Of a DNA stretch of 64,000 bases, positions 21,001 through 30,000 are shown piece by piece. Position numbers: made by a program. Origin of the DNA: a bacterium (GTDB lineage Bacteria; Fidelibacterota; Fidelibacteria; Fidelibacterales; Fidelibacteraceae); contig OY781066.1 of assembly GCA_963676395.1 (NCBI GenBank), positions 2,208,001-2,272,000 on the forward strand, written 5' to 3'. The stretch's first letter is position 1. Each line of letters starts with the position of its first letter.

Positions 21001-24000
21001 ATAAAACGCAAGAAGATTGTGCGGTTTGGGCACTTTTCCCACCAAAATTTGATGGAGAATCAGAAATATTACTTCAAAATGGTGATAAATTTATTCCTAA
21101 AGATCGGTGGTTAAGAAAAAATGAAAATTATATTGATTATTATCTTAAAGGTGATAAATCATTTTTAATTATGGGCGAACCGGAAAGAATGAATCAAAGA
21201 CTAATTGCCCAAGCAGGCACATTTATTGTCCCAAGTAAAATTGACATACCCCTCGAAAAAATAATTATTGATAATTATCAAAATTCGGATGATGCAATTA
21301 AAAAAATAATTATAAAAAAATCTGTTAGAGATAAAGCTATGAAAGATTTATACAGATCAAATATTACAGAAGCTACCCTGTTTCCTGGAATAGATGGAAT
21401 GGCAAGAGCTTTATCATATGAATTAGAACATCATTGGGCTTATAATCCAAAAACAATGGAAAAGGTTGTAGGCTTTGATAGCCCTCCTTTTGGGTTGCCT
21501 GATTCAATCATATAGCTAAGTAATTTGCTATCAATTATGGGTGTTTTTATAATTAGAACTAAATTTGGAATAAATATATTTTAGGAAAATATAATAAATA
21601 GGTATATAATTAATCATGTCTATTATACTCGAGATAAATAATCTGGAAGTATCTTTTAAAAATAAAGATACAACAGTCTATGCCGTAAATAATGTATCAT
21701 TTTCTGTTGTTAGAAAAGAAGTACTCGGCATAGTAGGAGAATCAGGTTGTGGGAAATCTGTCACTTGTAAAACAATTTTAGGACTAAACAATCACCCGGA
21801 ACAAAGTGGAGAGGTTTTATTCCATGGGAAAAATATTTTGGAAGTTTCTGAAAAGGAGTTAAATAATATTCGTGGAAAAGAAATTTCCATGATTTTTCAA
21901 AATTCCGGGAATGCTCTGAATCCGATGGTAAGCATTGGGAAACAAATGGTTGAAGTGATACGCTTACATCAGGGACTAGACAAAATCGATGCTCAAAAAG
22001 AAGCGATACGGTTTTTAAAAGAAATGGATGTGCCTGATGCTGAAGAAAAAATGAACGAGTATCCGCATCAACAAAGCGGAGGAATAAACCAACGGATCGT
22101 TATTGCGATTGCATTAAGTTGTCATCCTGGATTATTGATTGCAGATGAACCAACAGCATCCTTGGATGTCACTATTCGAAACCAAATACTCCAGATTTTT
22201 AAAGATCTCAAAAAGAAACTAAGTATTATCATTGTTTCTCATGATTTGGCAGTTATTAAAGAAATCGCGGATAGAATCATTGTTATGTACAAGGGAATGA
22301 TCATGGAAGAAGGGAAAACGGAAGATATGTTCAAGAATCCATTACATCCCTACACAAAGGCTCTTTTAGCTTCCATTCCTTTTTTGAACAGAGATAAGAT
22401 CATTCTAAAGGGGGAGCCCCCTTCATCTCAAATTAAACCACAAGGTTGTCCTTTTGCAACAAGATGTCCTGATGTGATAGGTGAAATTTGTCATACAAAA
22501 AGGCCCAGTGAAACCATACTTGCAAATAAAGTTTATTGTCATCTTTTTAACAATAAACAATAAAGAAGCGAGGAGAATTATGAAAACTGTAAATATTAAA
22601 CATTGGATTATACTTATTCTGGGATTAGCTCTATTATTTTCTTGCAGTAAAAACAACGAGCAGGAAGATGAATTGATTCTAAAAGATGTCTGGAAACTAG
22701 AACAGGCACAGATAAATTCCTTCGATCCCCTGGATGCTTATCATGCTTATCATATCCAATTGGTAAAACAATTATTTAATACGCTAACGAATCTAGATAA
22801 TACTGGAAAGATCATTTCATCTTTGGCAACTTCATGGGAAACCGATAATGGGAAAGACTGGATTTTTCATTTAAGAGATGATGTATGGTTTATAAATGAT
22901 TCCTGCTTTTCAAAAAAAGAAGATCGAAAATTCAATGCAAAAGATGTCAAATATACTTTTGAAAGACTTTTAGATCCTTCTTCAAGTTCCCTCGGTATAT
23001 CCTATTTTACTAATATTGCGGGTGTGAAAGAATACAGGGATGGTTCTTCCGCATCAATTAAGGGAATTAATCCCGTTGATAAGAATACAATTTCCTTTAA
23101 CTTAGTTCAAACGGATTATAATTTTCCAAATTTACTATCATTGCCATATTGCAGTATTGTAAAAAAAACGGCGATAGAACGAACGGACAGTAAACAGCAC
23201 CCTGTTGGAACAGGTCCTTTTATATTGGAGAAATATATTTCCAATCAATCTGTATCATTAATAAAAAATCCTGATTACTGGGAAAAATCCGGTAAAACCT
23301 CTTTGCCAATTGTTGATAAAGTAGAAATTACTTTAACGACAGATGACAACTACTCGTTTTTATTGTTTAAAAATAAAAAAACCGATTTTCTTGAATTGAA
23401 TCTTCCTTTGATCAAGCAACTTGAAAACAGCACCTTTTCATTTGATTATCAGAAAAATGTGCTGGAATCGGCTCAATTGAATTTTTACCTATTTAATTTG
23501 GATAAAATCCAGGATCCGACAATCAGAAAAGGAATTAGTTATACTATTGATCGGGGAAAAATGCAGGCATTGCTGGGAGATAATGGTACAATTACTTCAT
23601 CATTATACCCGAAAATATTTAGCAATATTTCTCAGCCACAACAAATACTCGCATATGACTTAATAAAAGCAAAGGAAATGCTTACTCAACCTATGCATAT
23701 AAAGCTTGTGTCATTTGATGATATGCTGTCCCGAAGTCTTGCCAATCAAATCAGGGAAGATTTGAAACCTTTTTCCATTGATGTGGAAATTGAAGCCGTT
23801 CCATTTGCTGTTTTGGTTGATCGTCTGACTTCAGGCAATTATGATATGATACAACTATTTTGGGGAATGTTGTATGCGGATGTCAATCATTTTCTTACAC
23901 CGTTCAAAACGTCTTCATTCCCGCCGGTAGGAAATAATTTCAATAAGTATTCCAACGATCAGTTTGATAATACTATCAATAAAGCGCCTCAGATGCCCAA

Positions 24001-27000: not shown

Positions 27001-30000
27001 ACATTTGACAGCCTCATAAAAATGGGTGCTAAAACATTTGGAAATGTTGGGAAAGAGCCTTTACTGGATTGGGATAGTACAAAAATGTTGCTTCAATATT
27101 TTAAAGCCAAGAGAGATGAAGACAAAACTATACGTTTTGGGTTTGTCAGTAATGGATTGCTTCTAAATGAAGAAATTATTCAAGAATTGACCCAAATAGA
27201 GCCTGATTATATAGATATCAGTCTTGATGGCGACCAACATAGTCATGATTCTATCCGGGGAGAGGGTACTTATCAAAAACTTCTAACCAATCTTACTCTA
27301 TTGGCAGAAACGAACTTGGCAAAAAAGGTATTTATCAGTTTTACATTGAATAATATCAATAAACATTCATTGCCGGAAGTTATTAAAACCATTTATCAAA
27401 TCGGCTTGAAAAATTTGTTGATTTCACCTTATGTCACATTGAATAAAAAAGATCTGCTGTATCTATCAGATGTCGAAATTGCCGATATTATTTCCGATAT
27501 TCTGCATGAGAATACAATATCATTTAAAAATTATGAACATTTGAATATCTACGTAAAAAGTGATTATTCTTCTTCAAAGGGAGTCATGGAGAAATTTAAA
27601 GACAGAGGTATTATAAATAAAAATGATTTATTAGTAGATAATTATGGTGTTGTTTTTAATAAATATCAATTTGGTACAAATCATATTTATTTCAATTATT
27701 TACCTTATGACAATACCTTCACACAAGCCATTAGGATCAGTCATGACGGTTATGTAAGCGGTTGTCTTGAAATGTTCCATGAAGATTATCCTGAACGGGC
27801 TATTGGGAATATCAGGGAAATGGATATTTCAAAAATATTGGCAAATTATAATAAAAATTAATATTTGTCTTGCATTGTTATCTTATACAGATCATTAGTA
27901 AAACTCTTCAATAAATTTTAATGTACTCAACTTTATGGAGTACATAAGATTAACATTTCTCAATGGAACAATTATATTTCTGCTCGTTTAAATTGACTAA
28001 ACAATGAGTTGTATATGAATCCCAAAGTATCAGCCTTCTCCTAACGATAAACGATAAACGATAAATGATGAACACCTGCCAGCCGAAGTCCGTTAACTAA
28101 CGGATGAAGGCATAAATAGTGACGCGTTACGCGTGACGAGTAACAGGCTCCCAACCTTTCTACTATTTCCTTGCAAATCAGGCAATTAAGCCGCAAATTA
28201 GTTCAAGCAAATAAATAAGTTTAATCATTGGATCAAGGCATATTGTCTATGTGTAATTAATCCATATTCAACGCTTCAACCTCTTCCACTGTCTTGATCT
28301 TGTGATGCTTCATGCGACGGTTCTTGAACTTACGGAAGATGTATTCGATGATCAGGGCAGCGGAGAAGGTAAGCAGACTGGCGATAAAGGCGCTTTTCTG
28401 CGTATTCCACTGGTAAAGCATCAATGCGACGAACACGGCGATTAGGATGATTAGATTGATGATGATCAGCCATTTTTTTCCACCCACTTCCTTTTGAAGT
28501 TTCAAATGCGAGATCAGAACGAAAATATAGATGACCGTATACACGGTACTGGTGATCGAGGCAATTGCTTCCAGATTGAAAAAGAGCGCGAAGATCAGGC
28601 CGAGTCCTGCGGTAATATACAATCCTTCAGTGGATTTGAACCAGACCTTGCGTTCAAAGATCTCCGGCAATTCACCGTCTTTGGCTAGTGAATAGGCGAT
28701 ATTCGCGCCGCCGAAAAGGGTCGCGTTAAGAGCCGATGATATGGAGAACAAAGCACCGATCGTGATCAGGATGAACCCGAAGTGCCCCAGAAAAGGCTTG
28801 GCCGCCATTGCCAGGGCATTTTCCTGGTCTTTCATGATCTCGGATATCGGGAGATTCCCGATCGTGACGACCGAAATGAGGATGTAGAAAACCATCACAA
28901 GAAAAATGCTGATATAGGTCGCACGGGGTACGTTCTTTTGAGGATCTTTCAAATTCTCCGAGACATTAGTGATCAGTCCGAATCCCATATAGGACAGGAA
29001 AAAAATGATCGAAGCGTTCAATAATCCATGTACGTTCGATGAATGAAAATCCGGCTTTGCCATCGTCATGTCAATGGTCAGGAAGCCGCCCAGAATAAAG
29101 ACCAGTAGAATGGTCAATTTAACCAGCACAATATAGAATTCCGCTTTCCCCACGGCTTTACTGCCGAAAAAGTTCAAGCCCGTAAAAATCAGGATCACGG
29201 CCACTTCGACCAATCCCAGGGATAAAGGTGTGGACTCGATATGAGCGAAGGGGAGGAAATAACCGGCAAATCCTTTGACGAAGAGAGAAATGGAGACCAC
29301 GTAGCTCAACCACATCAGAAAACTCAACGCACCGGTGACCAGTGAATCGCCCATGCCTTTCAGGATAAAGGCGACAGGTCCGGCGTTTGAAATGATCCGT
29401 TTGCCTAAGATGGCATAGGAATACGCGACAGCCAAAGCGTACAAACCGGATAAAATGAACGCAAAGGGGAGATCTTTTCCTGCAATGCCTGCACCAAGGC
29501 CGAAAATAGAGAAAATACTGGCACCGATCATGGTTCCGACAGCAATGGAGATGACCTCCGGCAGGCTTAATTTCTTGTTGTTTTCCATTGAATGGCTCCT
29601 GTTCTTTGGACAGTTAACGTGTGAAATCAAAATTGTTTCATTAATTTTACTTGATTATAATAAAACATGCAAGCTGTGATATAACATAAAATAGATCATA
29701 ATATAAATCCGCGATCGCGTGGCTTATTCCGTTACATTGTGCAAAAGTTCTCCAATCTATGATCGGCAAGCGACAAGCACAGGGTTGTTGTTTTTGAAAA
29801 TTTAAATGTAGCCGAGAGATTATTCAAGAATGATTTAATTACTAGAGACCACATAGCTAATTAAATGACACGATACCTATAGAATATAAAGAACTGTTTA
29901 ACCTTATACATACAACTGTCCGGAAAATGAGGGAATGTCAGGTCTAACATATTTATCTGTGTAAGTTATGGGTCTATTCAATATCATTATGTGAATTAAG

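Follow-up and report, generated by a model that had tools for sequence, protein, structure and literature searches.

Several described systems come close to parts of the locus reported here. In Kongming the effector is the NADase KomC, which works only in complex with a partner protein able to bind a small signal. In HXS, radical-SAM (rSAM) enzymes are described as maturing an effector protein for anti-phage defence, and Ophion is a defence operon containing an rSAM gene. The present locus combines an importer, a defence-type SIR2 protein and an rSAM enzyme with its own probable target peptide, and we predict that its role is probably in microbial conflict. As an earlier note on this DNA had claimed, no described system of this make-up was found in PADLOC, NCBIfam or the literature searched. 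The reading we prefer, a single horizontally mobile, defence-type conflict operon made up of the six genes in three modules, is tentative and we place its probability at roughly 40%.

The cassette spans positions 21616-27861 of the window (the whole 64-kb stretch of DNA analysed) and consists of six tightly packed + strand genes, with open reading frames that overlap by 1, 4 or 20 nt or are separated by gaps of 17-24 nt. Reading frames and Pfam domains bear out the previous description of six co-directional, partly overlapping genes, and base composition that of a low-GC island, the cassette having 31.3% G+C (24.5-35.2% for individual genes) against 38.1% for the genome; values as low as this are found in just 1.8% of 6.2-kb windows of the genome. 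The surrounding region is a mosaic of low-GC inserts, and a second low-GC block in the window holds another ABC importer and unknown enzymes. The upstream neighbour of the cassette encodes an FRG protein (PADLOC PDC-S15, 8.1e-53).

Relatives of the rSAM enzyme number 243 at E<=0.001, with 43-67% identity among the 119 matches listed besides the protein itself. In 12 of 33 rSAM-family loci from other genomes (four Pseudomonadota, two Brocadia, three of Desulfobacterota type, and Rhodothermaceae, Myxococcota and Firestonebacteria), phmmer finds the SIR2 gene directly upstream, preceded by those for the permeases PermC and PermB, the substrate-binding protein (SBP) and the ATPase as far as the contig reaches; a further 15 that hold 1.2 kb or more of upstream sequence (11 DPANN, two CPR, two bacteria) are without SIR2 and importer genes. 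Both counts reproduce those reported earlier for the same 33 loci. Metagenome loci found through the SBP and reaching at least 4.5 kb downstream carry the rSAM gene in ten out of ten cases and SIR2 in nine, and orthologues of the ATPase occur in nine genome and 20 metagenome loci. Linkage survives rearrangement in locus L027, where the genes for SBP and ATPase are found downstream, on the opposite strand. The transporter parts co-vary with each other (Spearman 0.87-0.95) and each with SIR2 or the rSAM enzyme (0.61-0.71), and the rSAM tree is discordant with taxonomy. That the block travels as one horizontally moving unit, as had been proposed, is supported by gene order, the rSAM tree, co-variation and the SBP-side metagenome loci.

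The suggestion that the importer operon and the SIR2 and rSAM genes merely adjoin one another in a variable region could draw on the mosaic of low-GC inserts in the window and on the rSAM genes that stand without the others in archaea and CPR bacteria. It is extremely improbable and already contradicted by the recurrence of all six genes in identical order, with overlapping or abutting frames, in 12 genome loci (six phyla) and nine metagenome loci, by an SBP subfamily never seen without the rSAM gene where the contig is long enough, and by the co-variation of the parts. A split SIR2 gene (L004) and an insertion sequence inside one locus (L088) represent decay typical of accessory genes and count in favour of the conflict reading. 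The cassette rSAM gene was not found in the 40 related genomes examined, 21 of them of the same genus, and searches of viral contigs (best 30% identity) and plasmids returned no member of the family.

Four of the six genes encode the importer, which on average is conserved to the same degree as the rSAM enzyme and far more than SIR2. Its only ATPase gene (21616..22563, +) specifies an OppD/DppD-like protein with an oligo_HPY C-terminal domain (Pfam ABC_tran 2.1e-28, oligo_HPY 3.2e-18), for which the OppD subfamily is the best NCBIfam match (2.8e-93, under its cut-off). One permease is OppB/NikB-like (24169..25029, +; Pfam BPD_transp_1 9.6e-12, weak NCBIfam matches to Opp2B/Opp3B) and the other OppC/NikC-like (25026..25802, +; BPD_transp_1 1.1e-09, NCBIfam Opp2C 1.2e-32, under the cut-off). 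The SBP is an extracytoplasmic family-5 lipoprotein (22580..24169, +; Pfam SBP_bac_5 6.8e-58); its frame is open from a GTG at 22481, however, ATG 22580 is most likely the start; the N-terminus read from there, MKTVNIKHWIILILGLALLFSC, carries a lipoprotein signal ending in LLFSC. Mean column identity in the SBP subfamily alignment is 57%. Its nearest solved chain is the peptide-binding protein 8upi (2.8e-56), followed by SapA, DppA, DppE, PrgZ and OppA, and its nearest relatives bind peptides, heme or nickel. The column aligned to the alpha-amino-binding Asp408 of E. coli DppA does not hold Asp, so that a peptide ligand is not assured.

Such an importer would suit a pathway of import and modification with no conflict role, in which a scarce peptide-like nutrient or cofactor precursor is taken up and converted by the rSAM enzyme and by SIR2, the latter acting as an NAD-dependent deacylase or ADP-ribosyl transferase, and which spread as a useful accessory trait. 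In its favour are the canonical importer with an exported lipoprotein SBP, the conservation of that importer, the peptide, heme and nickel binders nearest to the SBP, and the other importer with unknown enzymes in the window. DPANN and CPR relatives of the rSAM enzyme, which lack SIR2 and importer, point in the same direction, as they lie in housekeeping surroundings and have as partners regulators of Lrp/AsnC or TrmB type, ligand-responsive families typical of metabolic operons. We nevertheless regard this pathway as unlikely in view of the SIR2 protein described below.

SapA is the best NCBIfam match of the SBP (4.5e-34) and ranks second among its solved relatives (8e-46), and the Sap system imports peptides for destruction. 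A comparable resistance function, in which a toxic peptide such as a bacteriocin or antimicrobial peptide is imported and inactivated inside the cell by the rSAM enzyme and SIR2, would agree with the predicted ability of the enzyme to hold a peptide in its barrel. We consider it very unlikely, as the SapA score is far under the family cut-off (118 against 560 bits), a defence-type NADase would be an odd detoxifier, and such a function would explain neither why a KAP NTPase replaces SIR2 at some loci nor why the enzyme carries an arm of its own (see below).

The SIR2 gene (25783..26781, +) encodes a stand-alone SIR2_2 protein of 332 aa (Pfam 6.8e-20), a predicted NADase effector with PADLOC matches to ThsA (2e-22) and LmuA (2.7e-18). 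A profile of the 12 cassette SIR2 proteins retrieves KomC (1.2e-44), ThsA (7e-26) and DSR2 (7.6e-19) from the PDB, and the motifs GAGFS, TTNWD and K-x-HG are invariant in 12/12. Judged by this profile, the protein groups closest with the defence NADases KomC, ThsA and DSR2, and its catalytic residues are intact. At 34% mean pairwise identity, against 49-56% for the other five, it is the most divergent part of the cassette. Locus L092 has a 396-aa unknown protein and a KAP NTPase (PDC-S20 9.4e-21, QatA 3.5e-17) at the SIR2 position, and in L005 the C-terminus of a KAP NTPase lies directly upstream of the rSAM gene; in these two loci the NTPase takes the place of SIR2, which would amount to an effector swap. 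No fused SIR2-rSAM form was found, which is weak evidence against the conflict reading. An enzyme of a purely metabolic import pathway would hardly be expected to have only defence NADases, and no deacetylases, as nearest solved relatives, to be the fastest-evolving part or to sit among abundant defence and toxin-antitoxin genes, and replacement by an NTPase of unrelated chemistry fits poorly with one metabolic step.

The last gene (26806..27861, +) was termed a radical-SAM/SPASM enzyme; the radical-SAM part of this assignment holds (Pfam 3.9e-20, CX3CX2C at C40/C44/C47), but SPASM is overstated (Pfam 7.8e-07), as the C-terminal domain is SPASM/twitch-like and cluster-less, having lost the auxiliary-cluster cysteines and kept one conserved Cys, C320. 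Foldseek searches with its AlphaFold model (pLDDT 87.5) gave SkfB, CteB, MoaA, SuiB and BlsE as best matches.

The earlier note had found no precursor peptide, a statement that should be revised. The rSAM family opens with a near-invariant Gly/Ser-rich arm, MAxGxSGSNGG, encoded here at 26806..26841 (+; MAIGFSGSNGGI); in 30 family members M1, A2, G4 and G7 are invariant and S6, S8, G10 and G11 at least 90% conserved. Synonymous codons within the arm are free to vary, which indicates selection on the protein. The motif is unique in the 2.34-Mb genome, and in nine DPANN loci 12 mini-ORFs located upstream of the rSAM gene begin with the same arm. A co-fold that paired the L031 enzyme with its mini-protein obtained a score of 0.79 (best control 0.22), a mark reached by 116/157 solved complexes and 2/215 mismatched pairs, with contacts agreeing in at least 76% between runs and a partner pLDDT of at least 79. 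In this model residues 6-13 of the arm contact strands of the barrel, and residues 16-19 form a pairing with 278-281 of the enzyme. The prediction lends support to the arm being bound inside the active-site barrel, and the precursor that seemed to be missing is thus probably the N-terminal stretch of the enzyme itself, serving as substrate or pseudo-substrate.

An arm carried on the enzyme or on detachable mini-proteins, and modelled in the active site, also brings to mind a signal that is made, released and reimported: the enzyme would modify its own arm (in archaea the mini-proteins), the arm would be cut, for instance after Gly-Gly, leave by lysis or export, and be imported by neighbours as a kin, quorum or alarm signal controlling SIR2. 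In bacteria the importer, of peptide type, is strictly tied to the enzyme, and pheromone binders such as PrgZ are found among the family-5 SBPs. Yet the cassette has no conserved protease or exporter gene, arm cleavage is without evidence, the canonical Asp is not seen in the SBP, and CPR members have the enzyme without the importer; we hold such a signal to be quite unlikely.

Defence, toxin-antitoxin or mobile-element families flank 9 of the 11 genome loci with flanks (two have none) and 7 of 11 metagenome loci (four have none), both being raw counts. Those at genome loci include an RdrB-like protein, a TIR effector, a pAgo-type nuclease, PDC-M68B/ABC-3C, GmrSD, PDC-S01, type III R-M, TacAT and integrases. 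Although sequence cannot settle the choice between defence and import-and-modify that the earlier note had posed, the evidence leans to conflict: the SIR2 protein is KomC/ThsA-like, a KAP NTPase replaces it at two loci, and the surroundings are rich in defence genes. The share and conservation of the importer, the loci that show no such neighbours, the housekeeping setting of archaeal and CPR relatives, the non-Asp column of the SBP and the absence of members among the viral contigs and plasmids searched are points against a conflict role, and we know of no binding-protein-dependent importer that is part of a defence system.

In the conflict operon that we favour, the dedicated binding-protein-dependent ABC importer, of the peptide/opine/nickel class, would bring a peptide-like ligand into the cytoplasm. 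The groove of the rSAM enzyme would accept the arm A-x-G-x-S-G-S-N-G-G, of which the enzyme itself bears one N-terminal copy to serve as substrate or pseudo-substrate, and the enzyme would handle or sense the ligand, which could compete with the arm or be processed like it. The state or product of the enzyme would then be relayed to the KomC/ThsA-like NADase, an exchangeable effector that, once on, would destroy NAD+ and stop the cell. We infer a peptide as the imported ligand, communication of the rSAM enzyme with SIR2, and growth arrest in conflict with a phage, competitor or toxin as the outcome.

Compared with known importers, the cassette shares with Opp, Dpp, Sap and Nik an SBP_bac_5 lipoprotein, two BPD_transp_1 permeases and an OppD-like ATPase with oligo_HPY, but has one ATPase gene where these have two, scores far under the cut-offs of all their NCBIfam equivalogs, lacks Asp at the DppA Asp408 column and possesses an SBP subfamily seen only beside the rSAM gene. 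The peptide maturases SkfB, CteB, SuiB and PapB have the same fold (Foldseek 1.9e-12, 1.2e-11 and 1.2e-09 for the first three) and share the predicted mode of peptide binding, in which the peptide pairs with a strand of the C-terminal domain while its target stretch reaches into the barrel. In contrast to them, the cassette enzyme is without an RRE domain and auxiliary-cluster cysteines, it has the target motif fused to its own N-terminal end, the cassette holds no leader, protease or exporter, and scores are far under all NCBIfam maturase cut-offs (PapB, the best, 80.5 against 340 bits; HxsB 49.6 against 370). Borosins of the OphMA type offer an analogy, as there too an enzyme carries its own substrate peptide, which in related lineages is a separate small gene. 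They are a methyltransferase class with a C-terminal peptide, and their clusters are without importer or SIR2, whereas here the enzyme is an rSAM protein, the arm is N-terminal and both importer and SIR2 are present.

Amongst defence systems, HXS serves as a precedent for rSAM maturation of an effector protein in anti-phage defence. Prokaryotic viperins (pVip) and Ophion likewise place rSAM enzymes in anti-phage defence; the PADLOC pVip match of the cassette enzyme (3.3e-14) is weak and generic, viperin chains appear among its Foldseek matches from rank 12, and it differs in its SPASM-like C-terminal domain and peptide arm and in the lack of a PHP or PRTase partner. Thoeris ThsA, DSR2, SIR2-HerA and SPARSA have in common with the cassette SIR2 a SIR2_2-type domain with conserved Asn and His, but SLOG, STAND, HerA and pAgo partner domains are missing from the cassette, as is a TIR gene. 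KomC of Kongming is, like the cassette SIR2, a short stand-alone SIR2 NADase effector and the best solved match of its profile, with nearly the whole of KomC covered, and both systems are horizontally spread multi-gene operons. The partners of KomC, however, are the adenosine deaminase KomA and the HAM1-like KomB, neither of which is detected in the cassette with Pfam or NCBIfam, where the neighbours of SIR2 are instead an rSAM enzyme and an ABC importer.

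The cassette comprises six open reading frames on the + strand between positions 21616 and 27861, for which Pfam matches identified an ABC_tran and oligo_HPY ATPase (21616-22563), an SBP_bac_5 binding protein (ORF 22481-24169, 6.8e-58), two BPD_transp_1 permeases (24169-25029 and 25026-25802), a SIR2_2 protein (25783-26781, 6.8e-20) and a radical-SAM enzyme of 351 residues with Radical_SAM (3.9e-20) and SPASM (7.8e-07) matches (26806-27861). The frames overlap by 1, 4 or 20 nt and are otherwise separated by gaps of about 20 nt. None of the six proteins reached the cut-off of any NCBIfam model; below cut-off, the ATPase came closest to OppD, the binding protein to SapA (118 vs 560 bits) and the radical-SAM enzyme to PapB (80.5 vs 340), and the SIR2 protein had no NCBIfam match.

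A scan with one genome per species yielded 33 loci with a relative of the radical-SAM gene. The SIR2 gene lies directly upstream of it in 12 of these, preceded by the ATPase, binding-protein and two permease genes in the order seen in the window, as far as the contig reaches; in one case (locus L027) a rearrangement has put the binding-protein and ATPase genes downstream on the opposite strand, with the set still together. The reverse test, using a profile of the binding protein, returned 25 metagenome loci, and all ten of those that continue for 4.5 kb or more past the downstream end of the binding-protein gene hold the radical-SAM gene, nine also holding the SIR2 gene; two further contigs, L101 and L102, stop inside a SIR2 gene. 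Across the window and 16 intact cassettes, a set that leaves out three loci whose genes are broken, the four transporter parts correlate with one another in pairwise identity at 0.87-0.95, and each of them with SIR2 or the radical-SAM enzyme at 0.61-0.71. The tree of the radical-SAM enzyme is discordant with taxonomy, the two Brocadia loci, Pseudomonadota and Desulfobacterota all being scattered, and the 31 bacterial rows all group in a single clade with support of 99/99, separate from the DPANN rows. The six-gene block described in the earlier note is thus borne out by the reading frames, the Pfam matches and the order recurring in 12 of 33 loci, and its movement as one unit by the ten binding-protein-side loci, the co-variation and the conflict between tree and taxonomy. 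That unrelated genes merely happen to be adjacent is hardly credible, being contradicted by the recurring order, the linkage seen from the binding-protein side and the co-varying parts.

Some cassettes carry additional genes. A gene of about 200 codons and no family, conserved among the cassettes that have it (cluster c8), lies between the two permease genes in L007 (5576-6202), L009 (7417-8064), L013 (3653-4240) and also L094. Both Brocadia loci (L004, 11231-13193; L013, 7349-9324) have ORFs of 524 and about 80 residues, again of no family, directly downstream of the radical-SAM gene, and share them although their radical-SAM genes sit in different subclades of the tree.

The G+C content of the cassette is 31.3 %, as against 38.1 % for the 2.34-Mb genome, and only 1.8 % of the 6.2-kb windows of this genome are as low. 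Since the radical-SAM gene was not found in 40 related genomes searched, 21 of them of the same genus, it is a recent arrival in this lineage. A search for direct or inverted repeats at the ends of the island gave only short, AT-rich ones that look like chance, there is no tRNA in the window, and promoter and terminator scans gave counts at the level of shuffled sequence, which are uninformative. No empty site could be demonstrated in congeners: rpe is present in five of five, lying at a contig end in the closest genome, and the flanking amino-acid permease (28257-29630, -), which bounds the cassette and has a native-like G+C content of 42-48 %, has no match at E<=1e-40 in the five congeneric genomes. 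As this permease was not found in congeners, the variable region may extend past the low-GC stretch. A search of plasmids gave no match to the radical-SAM family, and the 52 loci on viral contigs all hold distant radical-SAM enzymes (<=30 % identity), with no family member among them.

The low-GC stretch that holds the cassette also holds, as its immediate upstream neighbour, a gene for an FRG protein (20661-21515, +; Pfam FRG 5.2e-25), which matches the PADLOC candidate single-gene defence family PDC-S15 (8.1e-53); it occurs in none of the other genome or metagenome cassette loci. Further along the window, the overlapping ORFs 30215-30670 and 30582-31553 (+), the first of which covers no more than the N-terminal part of an ATPase of the ABC/AAA_23/AAA_15 type and has weak GajA-, LmuB- and AriA-like matches, may be one frameshifted gene of a defence-type ATPase. 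A second low-GC block (31900-40400, +; 27.7 % G+C) holds three ORFs without a Pfam family (424, 130 and 612 residues, the last with a faint caspase-like PADLOC match), followed by genes for an SBP_bac_3 binding protein, a permease and an ABC ATPase and then by a methyltransferase-like ORF and two ORFs of unknown kind, so that the window contains another importer-plus-unknown-enzymes set.

Defence, toxin-antitoxin or mobile-element families were also seen beside the cassette in nine of 11 genome loci that include flanking DNA, the scan covering 102 of their 105 flank ORFs. These comprise an MNT-HepT pair and an RdrB-like deaminase (L003), an integrase and PIN (L004), a methylase, PIN, IS110, a pAgo-type nuclease and a TIR effector (L009), PDC-M68B/ABC-3C (L012), PIN, GmrSD and IS elements (L013), Fic, PDC-S01 and a reverse transcriptase (L014), phage baseplate genes, a type III R-M system and a C5 methylase (L016), TacA with a GNAT toxin (L025) and DUF4258 (L027); the scanned flanks of L006 and L007 gave no such family. 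Among metagenome loci, scanned with Pfam only (58 of 68 ORFs), seven of 11 have such neighbours (L089, L090, L091, L092, L095, L096 and L099), and none was found among the scanned flank ORFs of L087, L088, L093 and L098. These raw counts, which are not a measured enrichment, are suggestive of defence-rich surroundings. In the DPANN and CPR loci the radical-SAM gene is found among genes for tRNA synthetases, ribosomal proteins, EF-1A, FtsZ and similar proteins; a divergent double Lrp/AsnC regulator gene adjoins it in 12 archaeal or CPR loci and a TrmB-like regulator in L010, L011, L022 and L026. A siroheme decarboxylase with a tetrapyrrole substrate, to which the archaeal double Lrp/AsnC neighbour (about 316 residues) might have pointed by way of NirDL/AhbAB, was dropped: this protein matches AsnC/Lrp regulators at up to 1.1e-19, more strongly than AhbA/B, for which it does no better than 2.3e-09 and stays far short of the cut-off.

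Importers of the Opp/Dpp type comprise a family-5 binding protein, in which an Asp holds the free alpha-amino group of the peptide, two permeases and two ATPases (D and F), whereas the cassette has one ATPase instead of two, and no second ATPase gene was found in the cassette or its orthologous loci. The binding protein probably starts at ATG 22580, with a lipoprotein signal; the N-terminus is hydrophobic in all 11 aligned orthologues, and at least three have a clear lipobox. The solved chain nearest to its profile is the uncharacterised peptide-binding protein 8upi (2.8e-56), followed by SapA, DppA, DppE, PrgZ, OppA and HbpA, with nickel and agrocinopine binders farther away. In comparison with E. 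coli DppA the conserved Trp matches, and the column aligned to Asp436 (Asp408 of the mature protein), which we take to bind the free alpha-amino group of the ligand peptide, holds Leu, the nearest Asp lying three residues later. The ligand is likely, though not assured, to be peptide-like. The two appearances of SapA, below cut-off among the models and second among the solved chains, could be read as a sign of Sap-like resistance to peptides; we consider this quite improbable.

Proteins of the radical SAM superfamily have a CX3CX2C cluster motif, a partial TIM barrel and a GGE-type SAM-binding motif. Membership of the cassette enzyme is indicated by its cluster motif, by the Pfam match and by radical-SAM folds as the best structural matches: C40, C44 and C47 are invariant among 30 family members, a T-F-G-N-V-G-K-E-P SAM-binding stretch is invariant or nearly so, and the AlphaFold model (pLDDT 87.5) is closest in Foldseek to SkfB, CteB, MoaA, SuiB and BlsE. 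The earlier note had labelled it a SPASM enzyme, a label that does not hold for the C-terminal domain. Twitch domains carry Cys residues for one auxiliary 4Fe-4S cluster and SPASM domains a seven-Cys motif for two, and these cysteines are missing here, the Pfam SPASM match seeing a remnant of the fold. The only cysteines of the protein are 24, 40, 44, 47 and 320; C320 is the sole conserved Cys after the barrel in the 30 members, and 32 of 49 family sequences hold a single Cys in their last 130 residues. As only C320 is conserved there, the SPASM-like domain cannot bind auxiliary clusters. An enzyme that lacks an auxiliary cluster and keeps a single invariant Cys could conceivably carry out a redox-neutral reaction, for example an epimerisation. 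The family is small and rare, with 104 clusters at E<=1e-30 in a set of 1.84 billion representatives, and a search for longer fused forms gave none at E<=1e-20, which the search tool itself rates as weak evidence.

The enzyme begins with a Gly/Ser-rich arm, MAxGxSGSNGG, in which M1, A2, G4 and G7 never vary among the 30 members and S6, S8, G10 and G11 hardly do; some family members lack the arm, their sequence beginning at profile position 27-40. Its synonymous codon positions vary freely, Ser8 being encoded as both AGY and TCN, so that the constraint acts on the protein, and an RNA element beneath the conserved start is ruled out. Upstream DNA is available for 12 DPANN loci, and nine of them have, directly before the radical-SAM gene, either a single ORF or a pair of ORFs of 60-72 residues headed by the same arm (12 in total); in two of the loci where these mini-proteins are present, L020 and L021, the arm of the enzyme itself is degenerate. 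A Pacearchaeota locus (L017, 9576-10060) has two arm mini-proteins and a radical-SAM ORF that starts with two tandem arm copies, as if a third mini-gene had been fused to the enzyme. Searches of the ESM Atlas with a mini-protein gave no usable feature match, the structural rows being generic helical hairpins.

A co-fold of the archaeal enzyme of locus L031 with its mini-protein scored 0.79, the best of three controls reaching 0.22; this score is reached by 116 of 157 solved complexes and two of 215 mismatched pairs, counts that hold only roughly here as custom alignments were used. The runs agreed in at least 76 % of contacts, with a partner pLDDT of at least 79. In the model, residues 16-19 of the mini-protein strand-pair with residues 278-281 of the enzyme, a nearly invariant stretch of the C-terminal domain, and arm residues 6-13 contact the strands of the barrel and, with them, the SAM-binding motif, a placement like that of peptide substrates in SPASM-type maturases. 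The modelling thus supports binding of the arm in the barrel. Because the arm is conserved, is carried by the mini-proteins and is placed in the barrel by the co-fold, it is probably a substrate or pseudo-substrate, held in cis on the bacterial enzyme. That an arm-bearing peptide is made, released and re-imported as a signal would bring together the importer and the archaeal mini-proteins, and appears improbable to us, as across the cassette loci no conserved protease or exporter gene was seen. Small ORFs with the arm were found neither in the window or elsewhere in its genome, where no protein but the enzyme carries the arm, nor in any of the bacterial loci.

SIR2 enzymes have a Rossmann G-A-G-x-S loop, a catalytic Asn in T-x-N-x-D and a catalytic His in H-G. 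All these features of an NAD-dependent enzyme were found in the cassette proteins: G-A-G-F-S, T-T-N-W-D and K-x-H-G are kept in 12 of 12 at a mean column identity of 28 %, with G33, F36, S37, T137, N139, D141, K190, H192 and G193 invariant, their roles being presumed after ThsA and sirtuins. The SIR2 profile matched the solved structures of KomC (1.2e-44), ThsA (7e-26) and DSR2 (7.6e-19), and PADLOC gave ThsA (2e-22) and LmuA (2.7e-18), so the protein has the character of a defence NADase with intact catalytic residues. No other part of the cassette is as divergent: its mean pairwise identity is 34 %, as against 49-56 % for the others. In metagenome locus L092 (6776-9090) its place is taken by a 396-residue protein of no family and a KAP-family P-loop NTPase (PDC-S20 9.4e-21, QatA 3.5e-17), and in L005 (119-856) the end of a KAP NTPase gene lies directly before the radical-SAM gene. 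L004 has a split SIR2 gene, and the cassette of L088 contains an IS transposase. Since the fifth gene is exchangeable, fast-evolving and sometimes decaying, it looks like the effector of a conflict system, not a fixed step of a pathway. A pathway that imports and modifies a compound, which the earlier note had offered beside a defence system, would suit the importer, and in view of the fifth gene we hold it to be somewhat unlikely.

We favour, at a probability of about 0.4, a conflict system in which an importer, an arm-bearing radical-SAM enzyme acting as a ligand-handling sensor and an exchangeable SIR2 NADase effector work together. The importer would bring in a ligand, presumably peptide-like; the radical-SAM enzyme would handle it and relay to SIR2, and the outcome would be loss of NAD+ and growth arrest. 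The computed basis for this consists of the gene unit, the defence-NADase-like SIR2, the conserved arm and the modelled binding of the arm. In a far bolder variant, which we consider very improbable as a whole, the arm would be a cytoplasmic tag that is normally never outside the cell; kin lysed by phage would release arm peptides, perhaps marked by the radical-SAM enzyme, and neighbours would import them. The imported peptide would displace the enzyme's own arm and switch on SIR2 or its KAP NTPase variant, so that dormancy precedes the phage. If that were true, prokaryotes would have their first immune system that senses a danger signal taken up from outside, and a binding-protein-dependent importer would have its first role in defence.

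Should the cassette be a conflict system of the favoured kind, an uptake pump as an integral and strictly linked part would be a new logic in prokaryotic immunity, as would a core in which a radical-SAM enzyme, bearing a peptide of its own, senses or makes the signal and is linked to effectors, SIR2 or KAP NTPase, that can be exchanged. Should it be a pathway, both the compound imported and the radical reaction on a Gly/Ser-rich peptide would be new ones, common to bacteria, CPR and DPANN archaea. Either way, a small and rare radical-SAM family gains a testable substrate, and the cassette offers a compact operon for experiments on the control of NADase effectors.

The view of the earlier note that no described system has this make-up stands for PADLOC 2.0.0, NCBIfam and the literature searched. 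Neither database has a model for the six-gene set, and the full-text literature searched, which includes few subscription journals, gave no description of it; by term search, the main text of one recent discovery paper mentions no radical SAM, permease or substrate-binding protein, and that of another has neither 'ABC transporter' nor 'permease', its radical-SAM system being Ophion. Viperins are radical-SAM enzymes in defence, and pVip, which makes ddhNTP in a nucleotide-triphosphate pocket, gave only a weak generic PADLOC match (3.3e-14), with viperins at rank 12 and below in Foldseek. HXS, in which two radical-SAM enzymes reportedly mature a protein effector in defence, and Ophion, a radical-SAM system in defence, resemble viperins in having neither an importer nor this SIR2. 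Radical-SAM RiPP systems encode the precursor, made up of a leader and a core, in a gene of its own, bind the leader with an RRE or a comparable domain and include a protease, an exporter or both; the cassette misses these, no RRE domain being seen in the 351-residue enzyme by Pfam or in the AlphaFold model; the archaeal relatives, unlike the bacterial cassettes, do have adjacent arm mini-proteins. Thoeris combines ThsA (SIR2 with a SLOG/Macro sensor) with the TIR-domain protein ThsB; by Pfam the cassette has no TIR gene, and its SIR2 matches only the SIR2 part of ThsA (residues 12-267 on positions 6-222 of the 478 of the PADLOC profile). Kongming consists of the adenosine deaminase KomA, the HAM1-like sensor KomB and the SIR2 protein KomC, and neither Pfam nor NCBIfam finds a deaminase or HAM1 domain in the six cassette proteins; only the KomC-like SIR2 is shared, KomC being described as a short SIR2 NADase that works in complex with a partner binding an immune signal. 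The cassette misses at least one defining feature of Kongming, Thoeris, radical-SAM RiPP systems and SPASM enzymes, and, judged from its sequences, it appears to stand outside the known kinds of system, with the function set out here as a proposal for it.
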